Origin: Omnitrophica WOR_2 bacterium GWF2_43_52
GTDB taxonomy: Bacteria > Omnitrophota > Gorgyraeia > Gygaellales > UBA12090
Reading direction: 5' to 3'
DNA length: 64,000 bases
Assembly: GCA_001805445.1 (NCBI GenBank)
Contig: MHGF01000029.1
Location: forward strand, 4,270-68,269
Shown piece after piece: positions 1,198 to 30,300 of the stretch. The translations under genes were made by a program, and so were the position numbers. Each line of letters opens with the position of its first letter. Positions within the stretch are counted from its first letter, which is position 1. The notes beneath the pieces are model-generated. The model was given only the letters and a program-made list of their open reading frames with translations, searched no databases and was not told the DNA's origin.

Positions 1198-1976
1198 CCC
1201 ACGCCACCAGGTCACCAGGTCACCAGGTCACCAGTAAAATTATTATACAACAACTTAGCATTTGGTTTGGAAAGGTTTTGGCTTTAAGGAGCCTGAACCT
1301 GGAAATACAGGGTAATGAAATCCTTGGCGTTATTGGCCCTGCCAACAGTGGCAAGACTTCCTTTTTGAGGCAGCTTAACCGCCTAAATGAATTGGAGGCG
1401 AGTTTTCGGATGAGCGGCGAGGTCATTTTGGATAACAAAAATATCCAGCACATAAAACCTGAAGCGTTACGAAAAAGGGTGGGGATGATTTTTGCCCTTC
1501 CGCAGGTTCTTCCTATATCTATCTATGACAATGTTGCCTATGGGGTGCGGATGCACGATGGTAAGAGTAAAAGTGAACTAGACGGTATCGTTGAGGATTC
1601 GCTTAAGTCATCGTTTTTGTGGGATGAGGTTAAGGACAGGCTAAAAGAATTAGCGACAAAACTCTCAGGAGGCCAACAGCAACGCTTGTGTATTTCCCGC
1701 ACTTTGGCAGTAAAGCCTGAGGTAGTTTTATTCGATGAGCCTTGCTCCGGTCTTGACCCTATTTCTACTGCTAAAGTAGAGGAGTCAATGCTTAAGCTGA
1801 AAGAAAAATATACTATTGTCTTGGTAACCAATAATACCAAGCAGGCAGCCCGGGTAAGCGACCGCACAGCTTTTTTCCTTACGGGTGAGTTGGTAGAGAT
1901 AGACAAAACGCATAAACTATTTACCGCTCCCAAGGATAAAAGGACAGAAGAGTATATACAGGGGAAATTCGGGTAA
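1191..1976 (+). CDS. pstB: Phosphate import ATP-binding protein PstB (copy 1)
   Basis: Walker A GPANSGKTS, ABC signature LSGGQQQR, Walker B VVLFDEP. The start overlaps the pstA stop (ATGGTAA). The N-terminus carries an unusual tandem CACCAGGT x3 insertion. Confidence 0.85.
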   Translation: MVTHATRSPGHQVTSKIIIQQLSIWFGKVLALRSLNLEIQGNEILGVIGPANSGKTSFLRQLNRLNELEASFRMSGEVILDNKNIQHIKPEALRKRVGMIFALPQVLPISIYDNVAYGVRMHDGKSKSELDGIVEDSLKSSFLWDEVKDRLKELATKLSGGQQQRLCISRTLAVKPEVVLFDEPCSGLDPISTAKVEESMLKLKEKYTIVLVTNNTKQAARVSDRTAFFLTGELVEIDKTHKLFTAPKDKRTEEYIQGKFG

Positions 1977-2045
1977 AAAAGCTCAATGTTACGAAGGACG
2001 TATGATGAGAGACGAAGGATGTGAACAGCAAGGTGATTTCCAACA

Positions 2046-2801
2046 ATGTCAAAGATAATTGCAAAAGACTTAAATCTCTGGTATGGCGCTTTTCACGCTT
2101 TAAAGCATATTCACCTTGACTTTGACGAGAGGCGTATCACTGCTATTATCGGCCCCTCCGGATGCGGCAAGTCTACGCTTTTAAGGGTTTTTAACCGGAT
2201 GAATGACTTAGTTGAAGGCGTGCGCATGAAAGGAGAGGTGTTGATAGATGATAAGAGTATTCTTGACGGCGGGTTTAATGATTTGGTAAAATTGCGTAAA
2301 AAAGTAGGTATGGTCTTTCAGAGGCCAAACCCTTTTCCACTTTCGGTGTATGAGAACGTTATCTTCGGCCTTAAAGTCCATCACTTGGCAAAAAAGAATG
2401 ATTTTGACGCTATAGTACAGGAAAGTTTAGAGTCCGTGCTGCTGTGGAATGATTTAAAAGATAAACTGCGTAAGAATGCGTTAGGGTTATCGTTAGAGCA
2501 GAAGCAGCGGCTTTGTATTGCCCGGACTATCGCGGTTAAGCCGGATATAGTGCTGATGGATGAGCCGTGCTCAGCGCTTGACCCGCAGGCAACCCTCAAG
2601 ATAGAAGAGCTGATGCAGCGGCTTAAAAAAGAGTATACGATAGTGATAGTGACGCACAATATGCAGCAGGCAGCGCGGGTTTCTGATGATACGGGATTTA
2701 TGCTTTTGGGTGAACTGATTGAATTCGGAAAGACAGTAGAAATATTTACCGCGCCCAAGGACAAGCGGACAGAGGATTATATTACAGGCAGATACGGGTA
2801 A
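2046..2801 (+). CDS. pstB: Phosphate import ATP-binding protein PstB (copy 2)
   Basis: Walker [13 protein letters not shown] signature LSLEQKQR, Walker B IVLMDEP, and the PstB C-terminal [18 protein letters not shown]. Confidence 0.85.
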
Positions 2802-2945
2802 TTGCAACCGCGGAGGCGCTGAATAACTGTTAGAAGTAAATGTTCCGCAGAAACACAGAAGAAGACTTATTGAATTTCCGCGCTTCAGCGGAAAAGCATA
2901 ATTTTTATTCAAATTCCGCGTTTCAGCGGTTGCAAGGGAGGAATA

Positions 2946-3611
2946 ATGGAAAGAATCTTTGACGAAGAATTGAAGCAATTGCGCCAATACATATTGACTA
3001 TGGCATCATTGGTTGAAGAAGCCATTTTTAAATCAGTAGAGGCGCTTAAGCAAAGGGATAAGTCGCTGGCTGAGGCAGTGATTGCTTCTGATAAAAAGAT
3101 AGATGAGTTAGAAAATAAGATTGATGAATTTTGTTTGGACTTAATCGCGCTTCGCCAGCCGGTTGCCCAGGATTTGCGTTTTATTACCATGGCAATGCAG
3201 AGTGATGCTGACCTTGAGCGGATGGCGGATTTGGCGGTAGATATTGCCCAGAGGGCGGAAGAACTCATTGCTCAGCCACCGTTAAAACCGTTAATTGATA
3301 TCCCGAAATTAGCCGAAATTGCCCAGAAAATGGTAAAAGAGGCAATAGATGCCTTTATCAATAAGGATGTGGAATTAGCAAAGAAGGTTATGCTTGCTGA
3401 TAGGGAAGCGGATGCGCTTCGTGATTTGGTCCAGAAGGAATTGATTTATGATTATATGGTAAAAGACGGCACAACCGCCCCGCGCGCGGTTCCCTTAATT
3501 TTAGTTACCCGCCACTTAGAGCGTATCTGCGACCACGCTACCAATATTGCCGAAGACGTGATTTATATGACTGAGGCAAAGATGGTCAGGCACCATCCGG
3601 AGAAGTTGTAG
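2946..3611 (+). CDS. phoU: Phosphate transport system regulator PhoU
   Basis: 221 aa with two PhoU repeats (DxxxD-type helices such as ADLERMADLAVDIA and HLERICDHATNIAEDV). Immediately downstream of pstB. Confidence 0.85.
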   Translation: MERIFDEELKQLRQYILTMASLVEEAIFKSVEALKQRDKSLAEAVIASDKKIDELENKIDEFCLDLIALRQPVAQDLRFITMAMQSDADLERMADLAVDIAQRAEELIAQPPLKPLIDIPKLAEIAQKMVKEAIDAFINKDVELAKKVMLADREADALRDLVQKELIYDYMVKDGTTAPRAVPLILVTRHLERICDHATNIAEDVIYMTEAKMVRHHPEKL

Positions 3612-3661
3612 CAATCATTATTACCGTTGAGCATCGCATTTTCTTATGATATGATAATGCT

Positions 3662-4348
3662 ATGCCTAAACTGGAAAATTACCGTAAAATAAAAAAGTTT
3701 TGCCTGGAATGGGGCGCGGACCTCTTTGGGGCGGCGGAGATATCCTCGTTAAAAGGTACCTTTGTTATTACTCCAAGAATCGTTGAGGGTTTACAGAGCG
3801 CAATCAGCCTTGGAGTACGCGCTTCGTGCGAAGTTTTAGGTGAAATTGAGCAGCAACCTACCAAACTTTATTTCCATCATTATCGCACCATTAATATGTT
3901 TTTGGACCAATTAGCGCTGCGGTTAAGCAATTATATCCAGAATTTAGGTTTTCGCTCGCTTCCTATACCCGCATCGCAAATCGTTGACTGGCAAAAACAA
4001 ACTGCTCACCTTTCCCATAAGCATATAGCGTATTTAGCGGGATTAGGCTGGATTGGCAGAAATAATTTAATGGTAAATAATAAGTTAGGCAGTCAGTTCA
4101 GGTTGGTAACGGTGCTTACGGATATGCCTTTAAAGTCAGATAAGCCTACGCAAGAAGATTGTGGAAATTGCCGCGCGTGTGTGGTACTATGTCCAGTAAA
4201 AGCAATAAAGGAAAAAAGAGAAGATTTTGACCATTTAGGGTGTTTTGCCTTATTGAAGGAGTTCCAAAAACAAAAGATTGTTGACCAGTATATCTGCGGA
4301 ATCTGCGTAAAAGCCTGTCGTGGAAAATCGCCCTTTAATAAATCTTAA
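3662..4348 (+). CDS. Short epoxyqueuosine-reductase (QueG)-like 4Fe-4S protein
   Basis: QueG-like core AYLAGLGWIGRNNLMVNNKLGSQFRL and 4Fe-4S cluster motif CGNCRACVVLCP. At 228 aa it is shorter than canonical QueG. Confidence 0.45.
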   Translation: MPKLENYRKIKKFCLEWGADLFGAAEISSLKGTFVITPRIVEGLQSAISLGVRASCEVLGEIEQQPTKLYFHHYRTINMFLDQLALRLSNYIQNLGFRSLPIPASQIVDWQKQTAHLSHKHIAYLAGLGWIGRNNLMVNNKLGSQFRLVTVLTDMPLKSDKPTQEDCGNCRACVVLCPVKAIKEKREDFDHLGCFALLKEFQKQKIVDQYICGICVKACRGKSPFNKS

Positions 4349-4416
4349 GCGGTTTTCCGAAGGCCCCGCCTACGGTAAGGCCAAGACGCGGGGTGTCGCT
4401 ATAGTTAAAGGAAAAA

Positions 4417-5115: not shown

Positions 5116-5119
5116 ATAC

Positions 5120-5205
5120 TTTAAATTGCTGCATTTCAAACTGTTAAACTGCTAAATGGCTAAACTGCTTAACAGTTTAACGCTTTAACACTTTAACAAT
5201 TTAAA
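5120..5205. repeat. Period-8 palindromic array (AAACTGCT units followed by TTAACNNT units)
   Basis: aaactgtt|aaactgct|aaatggct|aaactgct|taacagtt|taacgctt|taacactt|taacaatt. The period is exactly 8 nt and the second half is the reverse complement of the first. Confidence 0.6.
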
Positions 5206-5478: not shown

Positions 5479-5502
5479 TATCTTGTTAACCAAATAAAGT
5501 TT

Positions 5503-5535: not shown

Positions 5536-5580
5536 TGTCTTCAAGATATAACTATTATTTTATGAAAGTTACTTTGTAAG

Positions 5581-6210: not shown

Positions 6211-6257
6211 TGAGCTATTAGCAAGAATTCGGTAAGGAGTGCGGTAATATGTTGCAA

Positions 6258-6420
6258 ACGGATATCAGGGCATCTAGGGGATTAGGATTTGGGTATCGGG
6301 ACATCGGGGAATCAGGAAAAAGACCGTTGTGTTGTTCCCGACATCCTGATATCCTGATTACCAAATTCTGAGCACCCGATTACCTGATTTCCGCAGTTAA
6401 GATGGTTAACTACACATAGT
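6258..6420. repeat. Palindromic array of ATCAGGG/ATCGGGG units followed by CCCGAT/CCTGAT units, upstream of the lrp-family gene
   Basis: atcagggc atctagggg attagga tttgggt atcggga catcgggg aatcagg ... cccgac atcctgat atcctgat taccaaat ... cctgattt. The flanks AGTGCGGTAATATGTT (5') and ACACATAGTATACGAG (3') are identical to those of the element upstream of glnN. Confidence 0.65.
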
Positions 6421-6437
6421 ATACGAGGGGGAAAGCA

Positions 6438-6923
6438 ATGGATGAAATTTTAGAGATTTTAGAAAAAGACGCGCGCACCAGTCCGGAAGAAATTGCCAAG
6501 ATGCTTCATAAGGATGTTTCAAAGGTAAAGCAGGCAATAAGGAAATATGAGAAAGAGGGGGTAATCTTAAAATACAAAGCGGTAATCAATAAAGAGCTTA
6601 CCCGTGACGAGGAGTCTGAGGTGCGGGCACTCATCGAGGTAAATATCGTGCCGCAAAAAGACTTAGGTTTTGATAAGATTGCAGAGAGGATTTATTCGTT
6701 TCCCGAGGTTACGAGTTGTTACCTTATTTCAGGAACGTATGATTTGTTGGTAGTCATTGAAGGTAAGAATATGCACACGGTTTCGAATTTTGTTGCCGAA
6801 AAGCTTTCTTGTATGGAGAATGTTAGGGGAACCGTGACCCATTTCCTGCTTAAGAAGTATAAGGAGGATGGGGTAATGTTGAAGCATAGAGAAGAGAATA
6901 AGAGGATAGCGATATCGTATTAG
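6438..6923 (+). CDS. Lrp/AsnC-family transcriptional regulator
   Basis: 161 aa with an N-terminal HTH (ILEILEKDARTSPEEIAKML) and a C-terminal RAM domain. Confidence 0.8.
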   Translation: MDEILEILEKDARTSPEEIAKMLHKDVSKVKQAIRKYEKEGVILKYKAVINKELTRDEESEVRALIEVNIVPQKDLGFDKIAERIYSFPEVTSCYLISGTYDLLVVIEGKNMHTVSNFVAEKLSCMENVRGTVTHFLLKKYKEDGVMLKHREENKRIAISY

Positions 6924-7046
6924 CGTATAGCGTGTAGCACATAAGCTGATTAGTTTATGGGTAGGCAGTAGATAGTAATAAGAAAAGATGTTTTTTGTTT
7001 TACTAAACAGCTAACGAGCTAAACAGCTAATGAACTAAGCATTGTT

Positions 7047-9017: not shown

Positions 9018-9080
9018 GGTCGATAGTCGATGGTCAATAGTCAATAGGGAAAACATAGGCTATAGACCATAGACCATGAG
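9018..9080. repeat. Palindromic array with GTCAATAG/CTATAGAC core
   Basis: tcgatag tcgatgg tcaatag tcaatag ... ctatagac catagac cat. Confidence 0.5.
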
Positions 9081-9386: not shown

Positions 9387-9483
9387 GCACGAATTTGCAC
9401 GAATAAAAGGCCGAATGGACACTAATTTATTAAAAATAATTTATTCGTGTTAATTCGTGTGAAATTCGTGTCTATTCGTGTTT
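9386..9483. repeat. Palindromic array of CACGAAT units followed by ATTCGTG units
   Basis: gcacgaat ttgcacgaat aaaaggccgaat ... attcgtgt taattcgtgt gaaattcgtgt ctattcgtgt. The reverse-orientation units are spaced at 11 nt. Confidence 0.65.
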
Positions 9484-9500
9484 AAAAGGAAGAAATAATC

Positions 9501-17142: not shown

Positions 17143-17300
17143 CGCCGTGAGGCGAGCCGCAAGCAGGGATATCGGATGATCAGGGGATTGGGAGAAAAAG
17201 GTAATATTTTGTTCCCAATATCCTGATGCCCTGATTACCAAATCCTGATACCCTGATTGCCTGATTTCCGTATTTCACATCTATTATAACACATAGTATA
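17143..17300. repeat. Palindromic array of ATCAGGG/ATCGG units followed by CCTGAT units, upstream of glnN
   Basis: cagggatatcggatgatcaggggattggg ... cccaatatcctgat gccctgat taccaaat cctgat accctgat tgcctgat ttcc. It shares its 5' flank AGTGCGGTAATATGTT and 3' flank ACACATAGTATACGAG with the lrp-upstream element. Confidence 0.65.
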
Positions 17301-17316
17301 CGAGTGGAGGAGGATC

Positions 17317-19509
17317 ATGAGTATTCGAGAAGAAGTTTTATTCAAAATTAAGAGTGTTGATTTGGAGAAGAAAGAGCAGCCTGAAAGTGTATCGAGCTAT
17401 TATGGTGAGAATACTTTTAGTGTCTCAACAATGAAAGAGCATATTTCCGAAAGCACATTTAACGCCTTTAAGCGTTGGATGTCCGAAGGAATAACTATTT
17501 CCATGGACCAGGCTAATGAGATTGCCGAGTGCATGAAAAAATGGGCTATGTCTAAGGGAGCGACGTACTATACCCATTGGTTTCAGCCGATGACGGGGTT
17601 AACCGCGGAAAAACACGATAGTTTTATTTCCATAATCGCGCCCGGAAGAGTTATCGAGAAATTTTCAGGGAATAAGCTTATTCAGGGTGAGCCTGATGCC
17701 AGCTCTTTTCCTTCCGGCGGCATACGCGCGACTTTTGAGGCCAGGGGTTATACCGCCTGGGACCCTTCAAGCCCCGCGTTTATCATTGAAAGCACATTGG
17801 GCAAAACGTTGTGCATCCCGAGCATTTTTATTTCCTATCACGGAGAGGCATTAGATAAGAAGCTTCCGCTGTTGCGTTCTGATGAGGCTTTAAATAAAGC
17901 CGCCATAGGCCTGTTACAGCTTTTTGGCCATAAAGATGTTAAAAAAGTAGTTTCTACCTGCGGGCCGGAACAGGAGTATTTTTTAATAGACAAGCATTAT
18001 TATAATTTGAGGCAGGACTTGGTATTGACCGGGCGCACCTTGGTAGGGGCGGGTTCCCCTAAGGGCCAGCAGTTAGAAGACCAGTATTTTGGGACCATTA
18101 AAGAGCGGGTGATTAATTTTATGTTTGAGGTGGCTGAGGAAGCCTATAAGTTAGGCATTCCGGTTATTACCCGGCATAATGAAGTCGCGCCGCATCAATA
18201 TGAGTTCGCGCCTATGTTTGAAGAATCAAATCTTGCCGCTGACCATAATCAGCTCTTGATGGAGTTAATGAAGAAGGTCGCGCTTCGCCATAACATGGTG
18301 TGCTTGTTGCACGAAAAGCCGTTTGCCGGCATAAACGGAAGCGGTAAGCACCTTAATTGGTCCTTGGCGGATGATAAAGGCAACAATCTTTTAAATCCCG
18401 GAGAAACCCCTGAGGATAATCTGCAGTTTCTGGCGGTATTAGCCGCGGTGCTTCGGGCAGTCTACAAGCACTCTGACCTTTTACGCGCGAGTGTGGCAAT
18501 GGCAGGAAATGAGCACCGCTTGGGAGCTAACGAGGCCCCGCCTGCGATTATCAGTGTCTTCCTGGGAAGCCAGTTAACCTCTATCCTGGACATGCTTGAA
18601 AAAGGAGCTAAGAATAAGGTTTCTAAACGCGACATAATTGACTTAGGCATTGCCCGCCTGCCCAAGTTTAATAAAGACACCACCGACCGTAACCGTACTT
18701 CGCCATTTGCCTTTACCGGTAATAAGTTTGAATTCAGGGCGGTAGGCTCTTCTCAGAATATTTCAACGCCTATTACGGTAATTAATACTATTATCGCCGA
18801 GAGCCTGGATTACGTAGCCGATAAAATACGCAAGGCTTCAAGCGGTAAAGATTTTAACACCGCAGTGTTACGGGTGGTTGCTGAGCTTACCAAAGAAACC
18901 AAAGATATCCGTTTTGAAGGCAATAATTATTCCGAAGAGTGGCTGAAAGAGGCCAAGAAACGAGGCCTTCCCAATGTCGCTTCTACCGCGGAGTCATTAA
19001 AGGCGTTGGAGAAGAAGGATAATATCGCCCTGTTTGAGAAATATAAGGTTTTCTCAAAGGAGGAACTTATAGCGCGCTACAAGATTTGGATGGATATGTA
19101 TAATATAACCATAGGAATTGAGGCGAATACCCTGAACGAAATGGTCAATTCCTGTATTGTGCCCGCGGGCTGCGAATACGAGCAATTATTGGCGGATAAT
19201 CTTTTAAAGCTTACACAGCTTAAGAAAGAGGTTAAGTTGGAGTTAGATGCCGCGGTGTTAAATGACCAGAAAGCTCATTTGAGTGAAGTGGCGCAAAAGA
19301 TTTATTACGTCAGGCGCAACTCCAAGGAGCTGGAGAAGCTTTTGGAAAAAGCCGCCGGCCTGCACCACGAAGAGCGCGCGGAGCTTTATTTTGAAGAGCT
19401 CAAGCCGCTTATGGAACATATCAGAAAACATGTTGATGCCTTGGAGCGGGTTGTTTCCGATGAACATTGGGATTTGCCCAAGTATCGCGAGATGCTGTTT
19501 GTAAAATAG
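17317..19509 (+). CDS. glnN: Glutamine synthetase type III
   Basis: 730 aa, GSIII-sized, with GS catalytic-domain similarity. Confidence 0.85.
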   Translation: MSIREEVLFKIKSVDLEKKEQPESVSSYYGENTFSVSTMKEHISESTFNAFKRWMSEGITISMDQANEIAECMKKWAMSKGATYYTHWFQPMTGLTAEKHDSFISIIAPGRVIEKFSGNKLIQGEPDASSFPSGGIRATFEARGYTAWDPSSPAFIIESTLGKTLCIPSIFISYHGEALDKKLPLLRSDEALNKAAIGLLQLFGHKDVKKVVSTCGPEQEYFLIDKHYYNLRQDLVLTGRTLVGAGSPKGQQLEDQYFGTIKERVINFMFEVAEEAYKLGIPVITRHNEVAPHQYEFAPMFEESNLAADHNQLLMELMKKVALRHNMVCLLHEKPFAGINGSGKHLNWSLADDKGNNLLNPGETPEDNLQFLAVLAAVLRAVYKHSDLLRASVAMAGNEHRLGANEAPPAIISVFLGSQLTSILDMLEKGAKNKVSKRDIIDLGIARLPKFNKDTTDRNRTSPFAFTGNKFEFRAVGSSQNISTPITVINTIIAESLDYVADKIRKASSGKDFNTAVLRVVAELTKETKDIRFEGNNYSEEWLKEAKKRGLPNVASTAESLKALEKKDNIALFEKYKVFSKEELIARYKIWMDMYNITIGIEANTLNEMVNSCIVPAGCEYEQLLADNLLKLTQLKKEVKLELDAAVLNDQKAHLSEVAQKIYYVRRNSKELEKLLEKAAGLHHEERAELYFEELKPLMEHIRKHVDALERVVSDEHWDLPKYREMLFVK

Positions 19510-19738: not shown

Positions 19739-22700
19739 ATGAACAGCCGTCAAAACTTAGAAAAATACGGGCTTTATGATTCGCGCTTTGAACATGATTC
19801 CTGCGGCGTGGGTTTTGTCTGCGACATTAAGGGAAGAAAGGCAAATGCCATTGTTACGCAGGGCGTAACTGTGCTTAAGCGCCTTTCGCATAGGGGCGCA
19901 ACCGGCGCGGATCCAAAAACAGGAGACGGGGCAGGGATACTTATTCAGACGCCTCATGAATTCTTTTGCAAAGCCGCGGAAGCCGCAAAAATTACCCTCC
20001 CGCCTTTTGGAGAATATGCTTCGGGTTTAGTGTTTTTGCCTACCAACGCCAAGGAAAGAAAGTTCTGCAAAGAAGTATTTGCCCAAAGTATAAAAAAAGA
20101 GGGGCAAACTCTCTTAGGCTTTAGAAAAGTTCCTGTTGATAGTTCTGTTATCGGTAAAGCGGCGCAAGATAGCCAGCCGGTGATTGAGCAGATATTTATT
20201 GGCAAAGATAGAAGTAATAGTACGGGGTTCAGGGGACAGCCTGCCTGCCGGCAAGGTAGGGGTTCAGGGGACAAGCCGCAGGCAAAAAGTCAAGAGTCTC
20301 TCGAATTTGAGAGGAAGCTTTATGTTATCCGAAAGCAGGTAGAAAATACCATTCGCTCGTCAAATTTAAAACAAAAATCATTCTTTTATATCCCTAATCT
20401 TTCCAGCCGCACGTTTTCCTATAAAGGCCTGCTGATGCCTGAGCAGGTGGATAAATTTTTCCTTGATTTGCAAGACGAGAGCATAAAAAGCGCGATCTGC
20501 CTGGTGCATTCACGGTATTCAACTAATACCTTCCCGACATGGGATTTGGCGCAGCCGTTTCGGTTCCTGGCGCACAATGGCGAGATAAATACCTTACGCG
20601 GCAATGTTAACTGGATGTCAGCGCGCGAGGGATTATTAAAAAGCGAGCTTTTCGGTAAAGATATTCAGAAGCTAAAGCCGGTTATCGTGCCAGGGGGAAG
20701 TGACTCGGCAATGCTGGATAACGCCTTTGAATTGCTTGTGCTTTCCGGAAGGCCCATTTATCATGCCATGATGATGTTGATTCCGGGCGCGTGGGAACAG
20801 CATGCGTTAATGGATGAGAAACTCAAAGACTTTTATAAATACCATGCCTGTTGTATGGAGCCGTGGGATGGCCCTGCCGCGATTGCCTTTACTGATGGTA
20901 TCCAAATAGGCGCGGTGCTCGACAGAAACGGCCTTCGCCCGGCGCGGTATGTGGTGACTAAGCAAGATTTAGTGGTTATGGCATCGGAAGTGGGGGTATT
21001 GGATATTCCTGCTTCAGACATTGTTACTTCAGGCAGGCTTGAACCGGGGAAGATGTTTTTTATAGATACCCAAGAGCAGCGCATTATTAACGATGATGAG
21101 GTAAAGCAGAGGGTATCCCGCCAACGGCCCTATGGAGCGTGGCTTAAGGAGAACCTGTTAGAGTTTGATGCGTTGACAAGAAAGACGAAGGACGTGGGAC
21201 GAAGGACGAAGGACGATTATGACATACTGACGCAACTCAAAGCTTTTGGGTATACTCGCGAAGATTTAAAAGTTATCATCAAGCCAATGGCTGAGGAAGG
21301 AAAAGAGCCTACGGGCTCAATGGGTAATGATGTGCCCCATGCCGTGCTTTCTAAGCATCCTCAGGTCCTGTATACTTATTTTAAACAACTCTTCGCCCAG
21401 GTTACCAATCCGGCGATAGACCCTATCAGAGAAGAATTGGTGATGAGCCTTTTTAGTTTTGTGGGCTCGCAGAAGAACATCCTGGATGAAACTCCGCAGC
21501 ACGCGCATAAATTACTGGTGAAAGAGCCCATTCTTACCAATGACGGCTTAGAGCGGTTTCGCGCAATCAAAGAAAAGGGGTTTAAATCCAAGATAATCTC
21601 TATACTTTCTCCCGCGGAAGGCGCGAAAAAAGATAAAAAAAGCGGCTTCCTAAAAACCCTTAACCGTATCTGCCAAGAGGCGGCCTCCGCTATAAAAAAA
21701 GGTTATAGTTTTATTATTTTAAGCGACCGTGGGGTGAATAAAAACTATATGGCCTTACCCGCGCTTTTAGCGGTGGGCGCGGTGCATCATTATCTGGTCA
21801 AAAAGGCATTACGCACCCAAATCGGTATTATTTTAGAGGCTGCCGAGCCGCGGGAGGTGCATCATTTTGCTTTATTATTCGGTTATGGCGCTGATTGTAT
21901 TAATCCCTACTTGGCATATGAGGCAATTAAACACCTCATTAATGAAGGCCAGTTAAACTTAGAGCCTGAAAAGGCATTAGAAAATTACCGCCATGCCCTT
22001 GATAAAGGAATATTAAAAATACTCTCTAAAATGGGTATTTCAACCTTACAGAGTTATCGGGGCGCCCAGATATTCGAGGCTTTGGGGATACATCAGGAAG
22101 TCATTGACAAATGTTTTAGCGGGACTGTTTCGCGTATCGGCGGAGCCGGCTTTCAGGAAATTGCCGAGGAGACACTGCTTAGGCATACAGCCGCGTTTTC
22201 TGAAAATTTATTGCACTTCCCTTATTTAGCAAGCGGCGGCGTATATCAATGGAAAAAAGACGGAGAATACCATCTTTGGAATCCGGACACTATCGCCGCG
22301 TTACAGGATGCCGCCCGGCGCGGGGACCATAAGAAATATAAAGAATTCGCAAGCCTCATTAACGACCAGTCTAAAAATCCCACTACCTTACGAAGCCTGC
22401 TGAAATTTTTCTCCGAAGGCTCATCCGCCTCTGGCGGAAAACATACCAAAGCGATTTCTATAGACAAGGTTGAGCCGGCGCAGGCATTATTTAAGCGTTT
22501 GGCTACAGGAGCGATGAGTTTTGGCTCTATCTCCCGCGGCGCCCATGAAAATTTGGCCTTTGCCATGAATAAGCTTGGCGGCCGTTCAAACACCGGTGAA
22601 GGCGGCGAAAACCCTGAACGCTTTAAACCCCTTCCTAATGGTGCATCAGCTCGCAGTGCCATAAAGCAGGTAGCTTCGGGTAGGTTTGGGGTTACTGCCA

Positions 22701-24394
22701 ATTATTTAGTTAATGCAGATGAGCTGCAGATAAAGATTGCCCAAGGCGCAAAACCCGGAGAAGGAGGCCAGCTCCCCGGGCATAAGGTAAGCGCGATTAT
22801 CGCCAAAACCCGTTATACTACCCCGGGAGTAACCCTTATTTCACCGCCCCCGCATCATGATATTTACTCTATTGAAGACCTGGCGCAATTGATATTTGAT
22901 TTAAAGAATGCCAACCCCCGGGCGCGTATAAGCGTAAAATTAGTTTCAGAAATCGGCGTAGGAACCATTGCCGCGGGCGTGGCAAAGGGGCACGCGGATA
23001 TGATTTTGATTTCAGGTGGTGACGGCGGCACGGGAGCGTCTCCGGCGAGCTCGATTAAACATGCCGGGCTCCCCTGGGAATTGGGAATTTCTGAAACCCA
23101 TCAAACGCTTGTGCTTAACGATTTAAGGAGCCGGGTGCGCCTTCAGACAGACGGACAAATGCGTACCGGACGCGACATAGCGATAGCCGCGATTTTAGGG
23201 GCTGAGGAATACGGTTTCTGTACCGCGGCGTTAATCATTTCAGGGTGTGTGATGCTCCGGCACTGCCATTTGAATACCTGTTCTGTGGGGGTAGCCACGC
23301 AGGATGTGATGTTAGAAAAAAGATTTAGCGGCAAGCCCGAATACCTGGTTAATTATTTTACTTTCGTGGTAGAAGAATTGCGGGAGATTATGGCCTCTTT
23401 GGGGATAGCCAAGCTTGATGATATGATTGGCAGGACCGAGCTTTTAGAAGTTAATTCAGAAATTATTCCCTGGAAGGCGAAAAGAATAGACTATTCCCGT
23501 ATCTTGTATAAGCCTAAAGCCCCAAAATCTATCGGCACCTATTGCATGATTACCCAAGATCACGGTATTGATACAATCTTAGACCGTAAGCTGATTGAGC
23601 TTTCCAAACCCGCATTGGAAAAGGCTCAAGGAGTAACGATAACTTTACCCATTGAGAATGTGAACAGGACAACCGGAGCGATGTTAAGCGGTGAAGTCTG
23701 CAGGCGTTATGGCGAAGAGGCATTGCCCGATGGGACCATCACTTGTAAGTTTAAGGGAATCGCGGGGCAGAGCTTTGGGGCATTTTTGGCAAAGGGCATT
23801 ACCTTTGAGCTTGAGGGCATGGCAAATGATTATGTGGGTAAGGGTATTTCCGGCGGTAAAATTATTATCTATCCGGATAAGCGGGCAACATATGTCTCCG
23901 AAGAAAACATTATTATAGGAAATACCACTTTTTACGGGGCAATTACCGGCGAGGCATATATTCGCGGTGTTGCCGGTGAGCGCTTTTGTATACGAAATTC
24001 TGGGTTATTCTCGGTGGTAGAGGGCGTGGGTGACCACGGCTGTGAGTATATGACCGGCGGCAGGGTAATAGTGCTGGGTAGAACAGGACGAAATTTTGGC
24101 GCGGGTATGTCCGGCGGAATTGCGTATGTGTACGATAAAAATGGCGACTTCAAAAATAAGTGCAATATGGAGATGGTGGCATTAGAAAAGTCTGATGCCG
24201 ATGATGAGCTTACCATACGCGATTTACTGCATAATCATTACCGTTATACCAATAGCCCTGTGGCCAAGCAGATGCTTGATAATTTTAATGATACGCTCAA
24301 GAAATTTGTAAAGGTTATGCCGCTTGAGTATAAGCGGATTTTAGAACAGAAGAAGCTGGAGAAGAAGCTGGATTTGGCGGAAGTGTCGGATTGA
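19739..24394 (+). CDS. gltB: Glutamate synthase (GOGAT) large subunit
   Basis: 1551 aa. N-terminal amidotransferase Cys (MNSRQNLEKYGLYDSRFEHDSCGVGFV), FMN/Fe-S central domain, and a C-terminal GXGXG domain. Two in-frame low-complexity insertions are encoded by tandem repeats. Confidence 0.9.
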   Translation: MNSRQNLEKYGLYDSRFEHDSCGVGFVCDIKGRKANAIVTQGVTVLKRLSHRGATGADPKTGDGAGILIQTPHEFFCKAAEAAKITLPPFGEYASGLVFLPTNAKERKFCKEVFAQSIKKEGQTLLGFRKVPVDSSVIGKAAQDSQPVIEQIFIGKDRSNSTGFRGQPACRQGRGSGDKPQAKSQESLEFERKLYVIRKQVENTIRSSNLKQKSFFYIPNLSSRTFSYKGLLMPEQVDKFFLDLQDESIKSAICLVHSRYSTNTFPTWDLAQPFRFLAHNGEINTLRGNVNWMSAREGLLKSELFGKDIQKLKPVIVPGGSDSAMLDNAFELLVLSGRPIYHAMMMLIPGAWEQHALMDEKLKDFYKYHACCMEPWDGPAAIAFTDGIQIGAVLDRNGLRPARYVVTKQDLVVMASEVGVLDIPASDIVTSGRLEPGKMFFIDTQEQRIINDDEVKQRVSRQRPYGAWLKENLLEFDALTRKTKDVGRRTKDDYDILTQLKAFGYTREDLKVIIKPMAEEGKEPTGSMGNDVPHAVLSKHPQVLYTYFKQLFAQVTNPAIDPIREELVMSLFSFVGSQKNILDETPQHAHKLLVKEPILTNDGLERFRAIKEKGFKSKIISILSPAEGAKKDKKSGFLKTLNRICQEAASAIKKGYSFIILSDRGVNKNYMALPALLAVGAVHHYLVKKALRTQIGIILEAAEPREVHHFALLFGYGADCINPYLAYEAIKHLINEGQLNLEPEKALENYRHALDKGILKILSKMGISTLQSYRGAQIFEALGIHQEVIDKCFSGTVSRIGGAGFQEIAEETLLRHTAAFSENLLHFPYLASGGVYQWKKDGEYHLWNPDTIAALQDAARRGDHKKYKEFASLINDQSKNPTTLRSLLKFFSEGSSASGGKHTKAISIDKVEPAQALFKRLATGAMSFGSISRGAHENLAFAMNKLGGRSNTGEGGENPERFKPLPNGASARSAIKQVASGRFGVTANYLVNADELQIKIAQGAKPGEGGQLPGHKVSAIIAKTRYTTPGVTLISPPPHHDIYSIEDLAQLIFDLKNANPRARISVKLVSEIGVGTIAAGVAKGHADMILISGGDGGTGASPASSIKHAGLPWELGISETHQTLVLNDLRSRVRLQTDGQMRTGRDIAIAAILGAEEYGFCTAALIISGCVMLRHCHLNTCSVGVATQDVMLEKRFSGKPEYLVNYFTFVVEELREIMASLGIAKLDDMIGRTELLEVNSEIIPWKAKRIDYSRILYKPKAPKSIGTYCMITQDHGIDTILDRKLIELSKPALEKAQGVTITLPIENVNRTTGAMLSGEVCRRYGEEALPDGTITCKFKGIAGQSFGAFLAKGITFELEGMANDYVGKGISGGKIIIYPDKRATYVSEENIIIGNTTFYGAITGEAYIRGVAGERFCIRNSGLFSVVEGVGDHGCEYMTGGRVIVLGRTGRNFGAGMSGGIAYVYDKNGDFKNKCNMEMVALEKSDADDELTIRDLLHNHYRYTNSPVAKQMLDNFNDTLKKFVKVMPLEYKRILEQKKLEKKLDLAEVSD

Positions 24395-24580: not shown

Positions 24581-24599
24581 ATTATTCGGAGAGTTCCTA

Positions 24600-26081
24600 A
24601 TGGCAGTTGATATCAAAGGTTTTTTAAAGGTGAAACGCGGGCATGCTGAATATCGGCCGGTCTGCGAGCGCGTTAAGGACTATAAGGAGGTCATTGTCTT
24701 AAGGAGCGCTTCGCAATCTGAGGAGCAAGGCTTGCGTTGTATGGACTGCGGCACGCCGTTTTGCCATTTTGGCTGCCCGGTTGGCAATTATATCCCGGAA
24801 TGGAATGAGTTGGTGGCATCCGGCAAGTGGCAGAAGGCATTTGAGCTCCTTAATGCCACTAATACTATGCCGGAGATTACCGGGAGGCTTTGCCCGGCAT
24901 TATGCGAATATGCTTGTGTATTAGGAATTAACGATGACCCTGTAACTATACGAGAGAATGAATTAGCAATTATAGAAACTGCCTTTAAAGAAGGATTTAT
25001 TAAGCCGCAGCCTCCTAAGAAGCTCACCGGAAAAAAGGTCGCGGTAGTCGGCTCAGGCCCCGCGGGGTTATCAACTGCCAGCCAGTTAAATAAAGCAGGC
25101 CATACGGTCGTGGTATTTGAAAAGTACACGCACGCAGGAGGTATTTTACGTTACGGCATCCCTGATTTTAAACTTGAGAAACGGGTGATTGATAGGCGCG
25201 TTGCTATCTGGAAAAAAGAAGGAATAAAGTTTAAGACCAATATTAATGTGGGTATAGATTATCCGGCCTCAAAATTATTAAAAGAATTTGACGCGGCCTG
25301 CCTTGCCGGCGGCTCAAGGGTTGCGCGCGATTTAAAGATAGAGGGCAGGGAATTAGCCGGGATTCATTTTGCCATGGATTATTTGATTCAGTCTAACCAG
25401 AGGGCTAGTGAAGAAAAACCAAACCCGCATTGGAAAAATTCCAATGCGGGTTTGGAAGTAGGTCAGCTTATTGATGCCAAAGGAAAGCGTGTATTGGTAA
25501 TCGGCGGAGGGGATACTGGTGCTGATTGCGTGGGGACTGCCAATAGGCAGGGCGCGTCTTGTGTGGTGCAGATAGAGGTTATGCCTAAGCCGCCTGAATG
25601 CCGCACTGAAGATATGCCCTGGCCAAGATATCCGATGCTGCTAAAAACTTCTTCAAGCCATGAAGAGGGTGGAGAGCGCCAATGGGCGGTTTTAACTAAA
25701 AAGTTTATCGGTGAAAATGGAAAGGTTACAAAGGTTTCTTGTGTAAGGGCGGAATTCCCGGGAAAAGACGCCAAAGGCTGCCCTGTGATGAGAGAGGTTG
25801 CGGGAAGCGAATTTGAGATTGAAGCGGACCTGGTAATTTTGGCAATAGGTTTTGTCCATCCCGAGCATGAAGGTTTGTTAAAAGGGTTAAAAATAGAGTT
25901 AGATTCCCGCGGTAACGTCAAAACCGACGAGAACTATATGACTTCCAAGAAGGGTGTGTTTTCCGCAGGCGATATGCGCAGGGGTCAATCCCTGATTGTC
26001 TGGGCAATCCACGAAGGCAGGCACGCAGCCCGCGCTATTGACGCCTACCTTATGGGTAAATCTTCATTACCCATTCTTTAA
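24600..26081 (+). CDS. gltD: Glutamate synthase small subunit (NADPH-dependent)
   Basis: 493 aa. N-terminal Fe-S Cys clusters (CMDCGTPFC, CPALCEYAC) and an FAD/NAD Rossmann motif (VAVVGSGPAGL). Confidence 0.9.
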   Translation: MAVDIKGFLKVKRGHAEYRPVCERVKDYKEVIVLRSASQSEEQGLRCMDCGTPFCHFGCPVGNYIPEWNELVASGKWQKAFELLNATNTMPEITGRLCPALCEYACVLGINDDPVTIRENELAIIETAFKEGFIKPQPPKKLTGKKVAVVGSGPAGLSTASQLNKAGHTVVVFEKYTHAGGILRYGIPDFKLEKRVIDRRVAIWKKEGIKFKTNINVGIDYPASKLLKEFDAACLAGGSRVARDLKIEGRELAGIHFAMDYLIQSNQRASEEKPNPHWKNSNAGLEVGQLIDAKGKRVLVIGGGDTGADCVGTANRQGASCVVQIEVMPKPPECRTEDMPWPRYPMLLKTSSSHEEGGERQWAVLTKKFIGENGKVTKVSCVRAEFPGKDAKGCPVMREVAGSEFEIEADLVILAIGFVHPEHEGLLKGLKIELDSRGNVKTDENYMTSKKGVFSAGDMRRGQSLIVWAIHEGRHAARAIDAYLMGKSSLPIL

Positions 26082-26842: not shown

Positions 26843-26929
26843 TTCAGCTTTCCCGACTTTGTTGCATGCATTATTTGTAACGCTTTGTTTACCAATGAGT
26901 TCTGATAGATTTTTACGCATTGATTCACT

Positions 26930-27010
26930 AACACGAATGCAAACGGATTGTAGCGGATGCAGACAGATTGTTTTTATCCGCGACATCCGTAATCATCCGT
27001 CTGAATCAGT
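26930..27010. repeat. Palindromic array with CGGAT/ATCCG core
   Basis: aacggatt gtagcggat gcagacagatt ... atccgcgac atccgtaatc atccgtctgaatc. Confidence 0.5.
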
Positions 27011-27098
27011 ATATCTAAAAACACAGGTTCATTAAAAACTATGTTTTATCTTTAACTCAAAAGTTGCAACAAACTTAAGAAACTATCGAAATAATAAC

Positions 27099-27127
27099 TT
27101 GACAAAATAAGTTTCTATGATATACTT
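27099..27127 (+). promoter_or_regulatory. Sigma-70-like promoter (TTGACA-N16-TATACT)
   Basis: ttgaca aaataagtttctatga tatact. It would drive a short transcript ending at the 27207-27250 terminator, or an attenuated leader of the giant gene. Confidence 0.35.
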
Positions 27128-27206
27128 TAAATAAGTATTTAACAACAATTAGCTTATATATGTTGCTGGTGTATGGAGGTACGCCAACAACGTAACTAAT
27201 ATATAA

Positions 27207-27250
27207 TGCCGGATTGCCAAAAATGGTCAGTCCGGCATTTTTTATTTTTT
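27207..27250 (+). terminator. Rho-independent terminator/attenuator upstream of the giant gene
   Basis: tgccgga-ttgccaaaaatggtcag-tccggca followed by ttttttatttttt. Confidence 0.5.
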
Positions 27251-27361
27251 GTCCATAACCAAACCCCGCAACCTACGCGGTTGACTTTTTTCCCCGACGG
27301 TAAATTTCCGCAACCTCCGCGGTTGACTTTGGTAAGGGGTTTTTATAGGAGGATTACAAAG

Positions 27362-30300
27362 ATGGTACGTAAGATAATCTCAATAGTAGTAACGATAGGC
27401 TTACTCTTTAACCAAGGCGGGGTTATTTATGCCGCGGGTGAACTTAACCTTTCAAGCTATCTTAGCCAGTTGCATACGAGCCTGGTTAAGCCCGATATCT
27501 TCCGGCCGGTGCACCTGCGCTATTTCTCCTATGACAGCCTGAATAACAGCTACAAGATACTCTTGGATAAAGGAGACTACACCAAGTCACCAAGTCACCA
27601 GGACACCCCCGACGCTTCGGTCGGGGCAGGCAGGTCACCAGAAGAAGATCTCGTGCTCAAGGAAACTGCCCAGGAGTTGATGGACTACTTCCTGATAGGA
27701 GTAACTCTCCCCAATGATACTTTTTGGGTAAACCTAAGGCCTGATGCCCCGGATACCATCATAGACCCTGAGTTAGAGACAACCGATATAGGTAAGATAT
27801 TCCTTGAGGCCGACCTCCAGCTCAAGAAGGATACCGCGAGCTTTACTTCACCCCAAACCCCTGAAGGCAAACAGTATTGGGATAAACTCTATAAAAAGGC
27901 AGGGGAATTATTTGGCTCGGAGAATATTACCATACCTACCTTAACCCGCCCATGGATAGTGCCCAATGAAATCATCGTAAGAGAAACAGATGATTCGGCC
28001 TATGTGTACAAAGCAACGCTTAAGGTGTTGCTGGAAGAAGATTATCTAAAAAGCTCTCAGCCTTCAGCTCTCAGCCCTCAGCAATACAATTTTAAAGATT
28101 CAAGGTTAAAAGAGCTCAATGAATACTCTACCCAGCTTATCAGAGAAACTATAATTCCTAAGCTTACCAGAGAGGTAAACTCAAGCCAAAGGTATGCTAA
28201 GTTACGGCAGGTATACTATTCGCTGATACTTTCAAGATGGTTTAAGGCTCGTTTTAATAGTAAAGAGTCACAAGGTCACCAAGTCACAAGGTCACAAGGA
28301 GAAAATTACATTAATTTAATTGATAGGCGTAATCTCACTAACCTTACCTCAGAAGAACTATGGGATAAGATTACCTATTTTAACCAATACAAAGACTCCT
28401 TCAACAAAGGTGAATATAATATCAAGGAACCTACGTTTACTGCCTACGGCCAGAGTATCAGGAGTTATACCAGCGGGGGGATTGGCATTGGGCAAGCGAT
28501 ATTACCTTTTGAAGCTGATATGCAAGGTCAAGGCGCAGGGAGTCCAATACGGGGAGGAAGTTTTCAAGGGAATAATCCTGTTATTTCTGATGCGGTAATT
28601 GGCGCAGATGAAAAGAGTATAGTTTTAGATGAAAATCTTGAAGTTGTTGAACAGAAGCCTGTTGCCCTCGCCGCCTCGCCGGTGACTGTTGAAGATGCAG
28701 ATCAAAAGATTCTGGATATTCTTGAAGAAGAATTTATTTCAGATATTTTCCCAAAAGATGTGGTAGAGAAGTTTAAAGAATATAAAAGCATTAAAATTAG
28801 CAAATTTAGCAATATTGATAAGGATGTTGGAATGCCCCATGCAAGAAAAGATATAGAGAAATTATCCAGAATAAAAGGCTTTCTTAGGTATGTTATGAAT
28901 GAGTACACTAAAATAAAAGAAAAAGATGAGACCCGAGCGCGGGTACTCCTTAATAAGATAAAAATCTTGCAAGAATATCTAGAACAAGCATTAGGTGGAG
29001 AATTGTCAGTGCTTAAGGAATTTGCCGCTAATATTAATGCTGGAAAAATAACAGTTATTAGCGTTGCCATATTAAAGCAATGGGAAAAATTAATGGCTGA
29101 TATGCTTATTTCTGAAAGATACCACGCATTTGTTAAGCATTTGACTAAGAGAAATATAGAATTCTCTCGGGCAGGGAGCCTGATGAAGATATTGAACTTA
29201 GAAAGAGCAGGTAAGCGCGCCACGCAATTTAAAATTAAAGCTGGAGAGACTCTCGAGAAAAAATATAACCCCGGAGATAAATTTATTTTCAACGATGTTT
29301 TGCCGGATATTGCTTTAGGAATTAACTTTGGGGGGATACTTACTGATATAATAGTAAACGCTAATCCGCTCTTGTGGGGAAATGTGCTTATTCTTCCCGA
29401 TCCCAGTAAGTGCCTTAGCCAATATTTTAACAAAGAAGCAGCGATAGTAGCTCTTAATTTATTGGATAAGTTTAACAACCCGGGTTATAAACTAGGATTT
29501 AATGGCCCTGGGGCTTTTGCTTCTGTCCCTCAACTTCATCTGCAGGGATTTGATTATTTTGACAGCACTGGAGAAGATAAATTGCCCGTAGAAAACGCTG
29601 AAAAAACTTCTTTTTTCAGCAATAACAACGTATCCATTATGACTCTATCAGATTGGGCAGTCAATACCATTGTTTTAAACGGTAGTTCATTAGATTCATT
29701 AAACAAAGCGCTGGTATTACTTACCGATATATTGCATAAACGTAATCAACCGTTTAATATCGTTTTCACAAAAAATAGTGATAACAACTATGCTGTGTAT
29801 GTTTTTCCTAGAAAGCTGGAAGGCCCTGGGGGGGTTTTTGGCACAGGCGTTGCATTTTTAGAGTTAGCCGGAGCAGTATTGTTTACTAATCAGAATTTTG
29901 GCGGAGTGATGTTAAAAGATAAAGATAAAGAAAATCTTGAACAGCGCATAGCTTATCTTAAAAACATACGTCAGATAATATTTGGGGGTGGGACTATTGC
30001 AGAAGACCTCGTTCAGAGTGTTGGACTCGATTGGAAGGATGTTTCCAGCAAATTGATCGAAAATGGTTGGGCGAAGCCAAAAAATAAAACAGAAGTGACT
30101 TTAACAGCAAGTTTGGAACAGGTAAAAGACAGCATGTCAAGAGTTTTTGGTGATAAATGGGAAAAAATTATCTCAATCCTGGAGATTGATGACTTTCGTT
30201 ATGAAAATGAAAAAAACAAAGACGGTGATTATGTTTATTATGCTCGTCCCAAGAGAAGCGGTGAAAGCAAAGAAATTACCCCGTCGGATCTTAGCAATAA

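Follow-up and report, generated by a model that had tools for sequence, protein, structure and literature searches.

Arrays of 7- and 8-nucleotide repeats lie in frame within conserved genes of an Omnitrophota genome

Prokaryotic genomes contain long-unit simple repeats, with units of 5-11 nt, and heptanucleotides are the most abundant of these in many bacterial genomes according to the 2007 survey of Mrazek and co-workers as it is cited in later papers (PMC4679880, PMC4692102), where polymerase slippage is given as the proposed origin of the bacterial repeats. We analysed a stretch of 64,000 nt (the window) from Omnitrophica WOR_2 bacterium GWF2_43_52 (assembly GCA_001805445.1, contig MHGF01000029.1, positions 4,270 to 68,269), in which arrays of 7- or 8-nt units lie in frame within the first of two pstB paralogues, the gene of the glutamate synthase large subunit (GltB), and a giant open reading frame (ORF). 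These arrays resemble the repeats of the survey, as the citing papers describe them, in that 7-nt units (here 8-nt units as well) are joined head to tail at many, mostly intergenic loci with a patchy phylogenetic distribution. By the same description, coding repeats have units that are multiples of three, whereas here non-triplet units are in frame within conserved enzymes. The kind of element, the heptamer-type long-unit simple repeat, is already known; what is new is the prominence of non-triplet units in core-enzyme loops, the occurrence of common units across phylum labels, and the host phylum.

The heptamer TAACTGA occurs in marine Beggiatoaceae and some cyanobacteria, mostly between genes and just upstream of start codons (PMC4679880). 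In forward orientation it stops all three frames, and ORFs carry the reverse orientation only; the unit is common to distant lineages, and mobility is suspected (PMC4679880). Copies in ORFs are few (11 ORFs) and lie mostly in hypothetical proteins and at protein ends (PMC4679880). In contrast to this one dominant unit, the window holds many units, with ORF copies inside core enzymes and in internal loops as well as at termini, and TAACTGA itself was not seen in the window arrays. The GGGAATC and GGGGA(T/C)T heptamers of Xanthomonas and Nostoc are distributed genome-wide and over-represented in non-coding DNA, with a marked preference for about four units and an occasional inverted arrangement, and these G-rich repeats have been interpreted through G-quadruplex formation (PMC4692102). 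The window arrays differ in that they have no G-tracts, the coding arrays do not fold, and coding copies form a prominent class. Heptamers of the cyanobacterial short tandemly repeated repetitive (STRR) type are also mentioned for Calothrix (PMC4692102).

Repeats within coding sequence are known from two other systems. One is neuO of E. coli K1, whose 5' heptanucleotide repeat has 3-53 copies, varying between and within strains, and leaves the gene out of frame in roughly two thirds of genomes (PMC13001214). As in neuO, a non-triplet tandem repeat lies here in a 5' coding region, the frame depends on copy number and the peptide has a 7-residue period, but there are about four copies, no length variation was found, and the hosts are housekeeping genes. 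The second system is that of the Rickettsia palindromic elements, palindromes about 150 bp long that code for a conserved peptide (PMC10969869). The window arrays are likewise dispersed and in frame at permissive positions of unrelated metabolic genes, where they are probably translated, but they are tandem arrays of 30-35 nt without significant self-complementarity. A literature search found no paper on the GTCACCAG unit, its peptides, or repeats in Omnitrophota. Cyanobacterial STRR heptamer units include CCCCAGT, TTGGTCA and CAACAGT, and the window units differ from these and from TAACTGA.

The arrays proved to be real and non-random; they are in frame, lineage-specific and placed in coil, and the same sites are affected repeatedly in different lineages. 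They were located with Tandem Repeats Finder and by direct reading of the sequence. All repeat sites listed in an earlier sequence-only reading of this DNA were recovered, with coordinates differing by at most 2-3 bases, together with a coding array at 28052-28082 and a spacer array at 1991-2025 that it had not listed (Table 1). The octamer GTCACCAG occurs 5 times in the window against 0.66 expected, and for a two-unit GTCACCAG pattern allowing as many as 3 mismatches there are 8 matches where 0.03 would be expected. The coding sequence (54.7 kb) contains 5 arrays of period 7 or 8 with at least 2.5 copies, where codon shuffles predict 0.46 (none of 200 shuffles reached 5), and the intergenic sequence (9.4 kb) contains 8, where 0.12 are expected; the density is about 10-fold greater between genes than inside them. 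As in long-unit simple repeats, head-to-tail units of 5-11 nt are thus present above chance at many, mainly intergenic loci.

Alignment with hundreds of homologues placed the arrays at length-variable hot spots, where the repeat-derived peptides of other Omnitrophota lineages are different or missing. The pstB array lies in the segment MVTHATRSPGHQVTSK, with the array itself read as TRSPGHQVTS. The ATG of this ORF (1191-1976) overlaps the pstA stop codon (ATGGTAA) and is the sole in-frame start codon. An MV start is common to nearly all PstB homologues, the shortest included, and the array is placed between this start and the conserved KIxIxxLxIWFGK. The base form of the family has 248 amino acids and the N-terminus MVK(F/I)xIK, and dozens of Omnitrophota relatives carry 3-28 extra residues immediately after MV, many of them with a period of 7 or 8 residues (KGKSQKE-KGKSQ, SALSPQL-SALS, QVAGRRS-QVAG, SIANRQSP-IANQ, QVASHQSQ-VTS). 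Compared at the DNA level with a relative of 82% identity (L001), the window gene is longer by exactly 24 nt, or three octamers. At the equivalent position, a relative of 78% identity has a heptamer array (GTCRCMA x4.7), and the array of a third relative consists of decayed AAAGGNA heptamers. Since there is no intergenic space at the pstA/pstB junction, an array of the kind that usually lies upstream of a start codon would fall here just after the start. The degenerate array in the spacer between the two pstB paralogues (1991-2025) is built on the GltB array unit ACGAAGG, and the 11-mer ACGAAGGACGT is common to it and to 21186-21196.

The pstA/pstB junction of another Omnitrophota UBA12090 locus (L059, 2520-2620) contains 5 GTCACCAR units behind an AAAGGTA-type segment. 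In this locus, NN stands directly beside the array, and the gene body is in a different frame from the ATG; the pstB start there represents either an assembly problem due to the repeat or a genuine frameshift allele.

GltB is affected at two sites. In the loop of the amidotransferase domain, what had been described as a 35-bp unit duplicated 1.4 times proved to be an exact 15-nt direct repeat (20224-20238 and 20259-20273, 35 nt apart) flanking a 20-nt near-palindrome. IFIGxx and LxFERKLY are about 4 residues apart in most of 120 GltB homologues but about 28 apart in the window protein, a gain of about 24 amino acids; a few other lineages have unrelated inserts in this loop, one of which is KIGKIGKIG. 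Alignment to the solved B. subtilis GltB (7mfm) breaks at query residues 156/185 against chain residues 154/159, and in 7mfm the loop after IFIG has about 4 residues, as in most homologues. The second array, in the linker between the amidotransferase and central domains, encodes RKTKDVGRRTKDDYD, and amino acids 481-493 are KTKDVGRRTKDDY. This linker is length-variable and usually has about 13 residues; the window protein has 17-18, hence only about 4-5 more, so that the array for the most part overlies this variable linker. The nearest GltB relative (P0001) has a different linker peptide of 7-residue period (RITSHEP-RATSH), and a member of its own 90% cluster (P0380) has a linker without a repeat peptide. 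The earlier proposal of lineage-specific insertion in GltB thus holds for the loop, but in the linker the net gain is small.

The sequence-only reading had also connected the GltB loop, through a CCTGCC...GGCAGG hairpin motif, with two sites between genes. The motif is exact at the intergenic sites (45913-45924 and 57648-57662), but the GltB copy is the imperfect CCTGCCGGCAAGG. We rejected the GltB segment as a hairpin of this type, since it folded no better than shuffled sequences (z -1.07) and the only two exact copies are both intergenic. The link between GltB and the intergenic motif is weak.

Residues 1 to about 375 of the giant protein form a conserved domain with many paralogues that, judging from its homologues, is apparently specific to Omnitrophota; a PDB fold search with this domain gave no significant match. 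In homologue alignments, the arrays of the giant gene correspond to three length-variable loops of the domain. Loop 1 (amino acids 73-93) is TKSPSHQDTPDASVGAGRSPE, and a relative of 81% identity (P0241) has 8 more residues of SPGHQVT-type repeat there (ERSPGHQVTTSPGHQVTP). The canonical form of loop 2 in homologues is about 8 amino acids shorter than that of the window, and the array of loop 3 is absent from P0241, which has QGKAGSYPE. In a neighbour-joining tree built from conserved columns, a few recurring insert types (SPGHQVT, TSRGGSRTAPT, QSTENRAQRTEKANN, GLSPKGTVP and KSQIPN) were scattered across the tree and in different loops. On the terms of the sequence-only reading, peptides carried by orthologs from unrelated lineages would not be insertions, and SPGHQVTRSP-type peptides do occur in homologues of 55-65% identity, which formally speaks against insertion; the peptides are, however, patchy on the tree and at different loops, and one is missing from the 81%-identical relative. 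This patchy, loop-switching distribution indicates recurrent invasion rather than an inherited conserved sequence.

Among the non-tandem insert types, GLSPKGTVP was present in homologues P0251, P0272, P0281, P0308 and P0277, and TSRGGSRTAPT in P0252, P0257, P0267, P0303, P0318 and others. Recurrent non-tandem loop peptides of this domain back-translate to short inverted repeats (e.g., GGGACTGTCCCC...GGGGACAGTCCC, derived from protein only), so that hairpin-type elements also seem to have been inserted in frame.

The GltB and giant ORF arrays are internal, with conserved sequence resuming in the identical frame on either side, and the arrays are probably translated into peptides. AlphaFold models were built from alignments of 64-65 sequences (mean predicted local distance difference test score, pLDDT, 79-80), and all sites modelled in GltB and the giant domain were in coil between confident elements, with pLDDT of about 51-69. 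GltB residues 157-184 form coil between a strand (148-155) and a helix (184-206) with pLDDT of 53-69, and residues 478-495 form coil with pLDDT of about 51. In the giant domain, residues 70-92, 232-246 and 299-315 were modelled as coil with pLDDT of 56-64 (59-64 in loop 1, 56 in loop 2 and 60 in loop 3). The expectation that the insertions would map to loops was thus borne out for GltB and the giant protein.

Coding and intergenic arrays are alike in their period of 7 or 8 nt and their typical 4-5 copies, and they have one unit in common; one intergenic family has a period of 10 nt. In most intergenic arrays, an array of the reverse-complement unit follows within 10-60 nt, which produces hairpins with periodic arms, and these inverted pairs gave RNA fold z scores of -2.7 to -5.7 against shuffles. 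The pair at 5138-5204 forms such a hairpin, with the next start codon 2 nt downstream. Coding arrays have no inverted partner. A hairpin or quasi-palindrome origin of the coding arrays was considered and rejected, since seven single-stranded DNA folds reached only -0.1 to -2.8 kcal/mol and were not better than shuffles; GGTCACC and CCAGG are near-palindromes. A stop codon was present on the gene strand in 10 of the 11 intergenic units, against 45% expected, and on the opposite strand in 5 of 11. On the sense strand none of the five coding units contains a stop, whereas on the antisense strand four of the five do. The excess of stop codons between genes could be the effect of a filter or reflect a function. 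The earlier statement that the coding arrays are of the same kind as the intergenic ones is therefore correct for period and copy number, but the intergenic arrays are inverted pairs that fold and bear stops. As to the further claim that the arrays expand within ORFs, by slippage in situ, the data fit the insertion of ready-made arrays equally well.

We scanned one genome per species for perfect runs of at least 2.75 GTCACCAG units, which identified at least 117 loci. Those listed are in genomes labelled Omnitrophota (many), Planctomycetales/Planctomycetia, Chthonomonadaceae, Acidobacteria, Bacteroidota, Verrucomicrobia and, in many cases, Actinomycetota. Single metagenome-assembled genomes (MAGs) carried 9, 7, 5 and 4 loci among the matches listed. 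Among the low-GC loci listed, 30 of the 42 (GTCACCAG) arrays, of about four units, were in frame within ORFs of at least 200 codons and always in the stop-free orientation. A Pfam scan of 20 such ORFs matched 19 to known families, and the array-bearing families include AroA, PheS, LeuRS, topoisomerase I (TopA), RecG, DXS, IspD, PurM, TGT and Lnt, as well as KdtA, Mur ligase, PrmC, RnfC, UDG, a GltD-like protein and a NuoN-like subunit; an aconitase-family protein carries an array in two genomes. In many of these ORFs, the Pfam match spans both sides of the array, and several arrays in other genomes lie at domain boundaries. Compared with solved homologues, the net inserts are +3 residues in AroA, +8 or +9 in IspD and +11 in TGT, which fits a seed plus three units and the insertion of a whole array alike. 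The (GTCACCAG)n arrays are thus a dispersed family at permissive sites of unrelated genes, as are in-frame selfish elements, and the inserts are without the palindromic or terminal-inverted-repeat architecture of 100-150 bp.

Perfect runs in the low-GC genomes are mostly 30-35 nt long with abrupt, unrelated flanks, and most perfect arrays have a preferred phase, starting with (AG)GTCACC and ending with CCAG. The flanks of the (GTCACCAG) loci showed no obvious target-site duplication. The same low-GC loci contain 70 further arrays of 7- or 8-nt units (0.28 per kb), which are often perfect and have 4-5 copies, and 31 of them are in long open frames. Of 16 window units, 9 had a partner with at most one mismatch elsewhere, against 3.6 expected (none of 300 shuffles), and the core GTCAC was present in 17 of the 65 other arrays, against 0.85 expected. 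The unit CATAGAC (9019-9077) recurs in arrays of three other genomes, and the ATAGCGT unit is identical in arrays of L046 and L073. Two limited comparisons gave no sign of mislabelled Omnitrophota among the "Planctomycetales" genomes: the GltD-like protein encoded at L025 shares only 32% identity with its window counterpart, and all loci in which the Omnitrophota-specific N-terminal domain was detected bear the Omnitrophota label. In actinomycete loci within the set L007-L120 (e.g., L016, L029, L048 and L101), longer arrays of GGTCACCA and GGTCACCG variants, of up to 16 units, were observed; high-GC genera with such longer arrays include Streptomyces, Phytomonospora and others, and one Acidobacteria genome (L119) also has them.

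We favour, with a probability of roughly 60%, the explanation that the arrays are long-unit simple repeats that form a family throughout the genome and pass through a filter of selection, with the coding members as tolerated passengers. On this explanation, the Omnitrophota genome would be densely populated with arrays of 7- or 8-nt units in about 4-5 copies (~30-35 nt), drawn from a limited vocabulary of units. Arrays would arise or land genome-wide, and purifying selection would then determine which survive. Between genes, nearly any array would be tolerated, and arrays there would be about 10 times denser, usually inverted-paired and usually stop-bearing. Within genes, an array would survive if it lies on the strand on which the unit is stop-free in every frame, if its net length preserves the frame (e.g., three octamers, which make 24 nt or 8 residues), and if it is placed at a terminus, in a linker between domains or in a loop on the surface. 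The surviving coding arrays would be translated into hydrophilic peptides with a period of 7 or 8 residues, such as HQVTRSPG, and would subsequently decay through point mutation. The repeat peptides would then be tolerated passengers, neither functional modules nor genetic switches, and their neutrality is what we infer from this pattern. The generating process could be slippage of long-unit repeats or the insertion of ready-made arrays.

Several points weigh against this explanation. Slippage from about one to about four units in an essential gene is difficult, since the +1 and +2 intermediates are frameshifted. In perfect arrays, the flanks set in abruptly and are unrelated, and one phase is preferred; units are common to genomes labelled as different phyla well above chance, and about 4-5 copies are also typical between genes, where there is no frame constraint. 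Together, these points suggest a sequence-specific process that generates or disperses arrays, and speak against slippage that is random and local. In addition, the neutrality of the peptides is assumed, and the frequency of sense-strand stops in the intergenic units (10 of 11, against 45% expected) could hint at an intergenic function.

A sequence-specific process is the core of a second explanation, in which selfish, actively dispersed mini-elements, each an array of about 32 nt composed of specific 7-8-nt units, are written or inserted at many genomic sites by a dedicated enzyme system that may have been transferred horizontally. GTCACCAG would be the commonest unit, and its compatibility with ORFs would let the array persist in genes, like the Rickettsia palindromic elements. 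The 117 or more perfect (GTCACCAG) loci of at least 2.75 units in genomes labelled as several phyla are consistent with this explanation, as are the 9, 7, 5 and 4 loci in single MAGs, the abrupt flanks, the preferred phase, and the clustering of perfect runs at about 30-35 nt in low-GC genomes. The unit vocabulary common to different genomes and the recurrence of the same insert types at different loops and in unrelated proteins point in the same direction. However, no associated enzyme, target-site duplication or terminal structure was identified in the loci, and viral contigs with the GTCACCAG pattern were no commoner than with two scrambled octamers (3 versus 0 and 2). Moreover, many units coexist in a genome, which a single templated mechanism does not predict, and the high-GC actinomycete matches may be ordinary repeats. 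We therefore regard this explanation as possible but unlikely. Its boldest form, in which a GTCACCAG-led unit vocabulary is written as ~32-nt arrays by a horizontally spreading mechanism with a 7-8-nt ruler, is similarly doubtful; it would constitute a new minimal class of selfish element that colonises essential genes in frame in Omnitrophota, Planctomycetota, Armatimonadota and Acidobacteriota.

A third explanation assigns the arrays a function at the DNA or RNA level, as sites for a regulator or nucleoid protein, as translational pause or standby sites where genes start or domains meet, or as all-frame stop barriers between genes, with the coding copies translated incidentally. Intergenic arrays terminate 2-50 nt before the next start codon, like the TAACTGA repeats of Beggiatoaceae (PMC4679880), and the stop-codon excess in the intergenic units noted above also speaks for such a function. 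The pstB array lies exactly at a gene boundary without intergenic space, a hot spot in many lineages, and the arrays at domain boundaries in other genomes agree with this explanation as well. However, the units vary by site and, at any given site, by lineage; close relatives without arrays show no visible compensation; the coding arrays have no significant secondary structure; and inside genes no conserved position relative to any signal was found. A function of this kind is improbable as a general account and is most plausible for the intergenic class and the pstA/pstB junction.

Copy number is stable among near-identical strains. An identical PstB protein was recorded for 18 contigs, and two more variants of 261 amino acids were recorded on 3 contigs and 1 contig. 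In the 90% clusters of PstB, GltB and the giant protein, whose members are from NCBI, JGI, ENA and Logan (NCBI names include GWF2_43_52, GWA2_44_7 and GWC2_44_8), all members covering the sites carried identical repeat peptides. When metagenomes were scanned for the pstB array flanks with a gap of 10-40 nt between them, two contigs matched, and each had the same 29 nt. No difference in array length was found among strains at least 99% identical, whereas at 76-90% protein identity the arrays differed (+24 nt, +8 amino acids, or presence versus absence). The strain-level check proposed in the sequence-only reading therefore showed repeats that are the same in independent assemblies and not hypervariable among such strains.

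These results bear on a fourth explanation, that the arrays are phase-variation (contingency) switches of the neuO type, in which a change of one unit toggles the gene. The unit length of 7-8 nt within coding sequence is not a multiple of three, and pstB has a perfect array that, as in neuO, occupies the 5' end of the reading frame (PMC13001214). Loss of the first pstB paralogue might be survivable, since a second (2046-2801) follows, and the orthologous array in L059 is longer, stands beside NN and has an ATG out of frame with the gene body. However, the arrays have only 3.8-5.3 copies, compared with 3-53 in neuO and about two thirds of alleles out of frame, and no length variant was present among the PstB records or the two metagenome contigs. 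Orthologous arrays persist and decay across species (L065 versus L117), and because the hosts are single-copy housekeeping enzymes (GltB, AroA, PheS, LeuRS, TopA and others), on/off switching is implausible. Neither copy-number variation with out-of-frame alleles nor a host gene for surface, host-interaction or modification functions, both typical of neuO-type repeats, was found, and phase variation is thus very improbable. That the arrays are assembly or sequencing artefacts can be dismissed almost entirely, because, although the genomes are metagenome-assembled and one related contig has NN beside its array, identical sequences are present in independent assemblies from several sources, and frames intact across arrays in dozens of conserved enzymes, many with flanking Pfam matches, exclude random artefacts of 30-35 nt.

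Non-triplet repeats are expected to be purged from essential genes, since each slip by one unit is a frameshift; here, such arrays are common in core enzymes throughout an uncultured phylum and also in genomes with other phylum labels. The repeat-derived peptides inflate and diversify the loops of conserved proteins, which is relevant to annotation, alignment and structure prediction in candidate phyla, and the hot-spot loops provide a natural map of insertion-tolerant positions in GltB, AroA, LeuRS and other proteins. The constancy of unit size, the usual four to five copies and the recurrence of units in different genomes point to an array-forming process. In MAGs, such arrays probably also lead to contig breaks and frameshift calls.

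The host is an uncultured groundwater bacterium of the phylum Omnitrophota. The product of 1191-1976 is 100% identical to an NCBI protein of "Omnitrophica WOR_2 bacterium GWF2_43_52", and GltB and the giant protein are likewise recorded at NCBI for the MAG GWF2_43_52. The window has a G+C content of about 44%, and nearly all genes are on the + strand. The features discussed here are collected in Table 1.

Table 1. Repeat arrays and host or neighbouring genes in the window (positions are those of the window)
Position	Strand	Feature	Context	Support
289-328		10-nt-phased repeat family	intergenic	
346-1197		PstA-type permease		Pfam
1191-1976		PstB-type ATPase, first paralogue		Pfam
1205-1234	+	octamer array CACCAGGT (= GTCACCAG) x3.8	N-terminus, first pstB paralogue	100% matches
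1991-2025	+	degenerate heptamer array ACGAAGG ACGTATG ATGAGAG ACGAAGG ATGTGAA	pstB1-pstB2 spacer	
2046-2801		PstB-type ATPase, second paralogue		Pfam
5138-5204		(AAACTGYT)n, then reverse complement (AACAGTTT)n; inverted pair	intergenic	RNA fold z -2.67
6906-6938		heptamer array ATAGCGT x4.7	across stop codon of ORF 6438-6923	
9019-9077		inverted heptamer pair (GGTCRAT)n, (ATAGACC)n	intergenic	RNA fold z -4.98
9388-9488		inverted pair	intergenic	
9390-9482		10-nt-phased repeat family	intergenic	
17317-19509		type III glutamine synthetase		Pfam
19739-24394		glutamate synthase large subunit (GltB), all four domains present		Pfam
20207-20290	+	GltB loop insert, ~24-28 aa (aa 157-184, RSNSTGFRGQPACRQGRGSGDKPQAKSQ)	amidotransferase domain	
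21180-21216	+	heptamer array GAAGGAC/GACGTGG x5.3	GltB amidotransferase-central domain linker	83% matches
24600-26081		GltD-type small subunit		Pfam
27362-36229		giant ORF, 2955 aa: phosphoglycerate kinase + half triosephosphate isomerase domain		Pfam
27579-27607	+	decayed octamer array GTCACCAA/GTCACCAG x2.6-3.6	giant gene, loop 1	
27634-27641	+	solitary GTCACCAG unit	giant gene, loop 1	
28052-28082	+	heptamer array AGCYCTC x4.4, period 7/14, encodes SSQPSALSPQ	giant gene, loop 2	
28267-28299	+	octamer array GTCACAAG/GTCACCAA x4.1, encodes SQGHQVTRSQG	giant gene, loop 3	
38356-38420		inverted pair; 10-nt-phased repeat family, with ACGCGAAT	intergenic	
51690-51812		inverted pair	intergenic	
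51712-51808		10-nt-phased repeat family	intergenic	
57025-57116		inverted pair; 10-nt-phased repeat family	intergenic	
57399-57480		inverted pair	intergenic	

The giant ORF has a hydrophobic, signal-like N-terminus and embeds phosphoglycerate kinase at amino acids 1192-1576 and half of the triosephosphate isomerase domain at amino acids 1869-1997. A short motif, (A)ASPL(T), occurs about six times in the protein, at apparent module boundaries, and other members of its N-terminal-domain family have precomputed Pfam matches to PGM, GAPDH, HD or HEAT-repeat families. Upstream of the giant gene, a direct repeat of about 22 nt, CCGCAACCT(A/C)CGCGGTTGACTTT, is present in two copies (27268-27335). The spacer at 2802-2945 contains palindromic CAACCGCGG and CCGCGNTTCAGCGG segments (2810-2935) akin to this direct repeat, and both sets may be operator-like sites.

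Most of the inverted-pair intergenic arrays terminate 2-50 nt upstream of the next start codon. The 10-nt-phased direct repeats, ACACGAAT and ATTCGTGT, are present at five intergenic sites, usually as inverted sets, and the copy at 289-328 sits between an upstream permease gene and pstA. A phase of 10 nt places one helical turn in each unit, which suggests a protein-binding array. Homologous leaders lie directly upstream of ORF 6438 (6240-6437) and of the glutamine synthetase gene at 17317 (17150-17316). An Rfam search with the two leaders matched no family. Both contain (GATATCAGGG-like)n and inverted (CCTGATWN)n arrays followed by a common ACACATAGTATACGAG, and they may represent a common nitrogen-related regulatory element. 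Three tRNA genes identified by Rfam (57121-57193, 57505-57586 and 57887-57959) are separated by GC-rich hairpins and a repeat array, and a CCTGCCTTCGGCAGG stem-loop at 57648-57662 directly follows the second of them.

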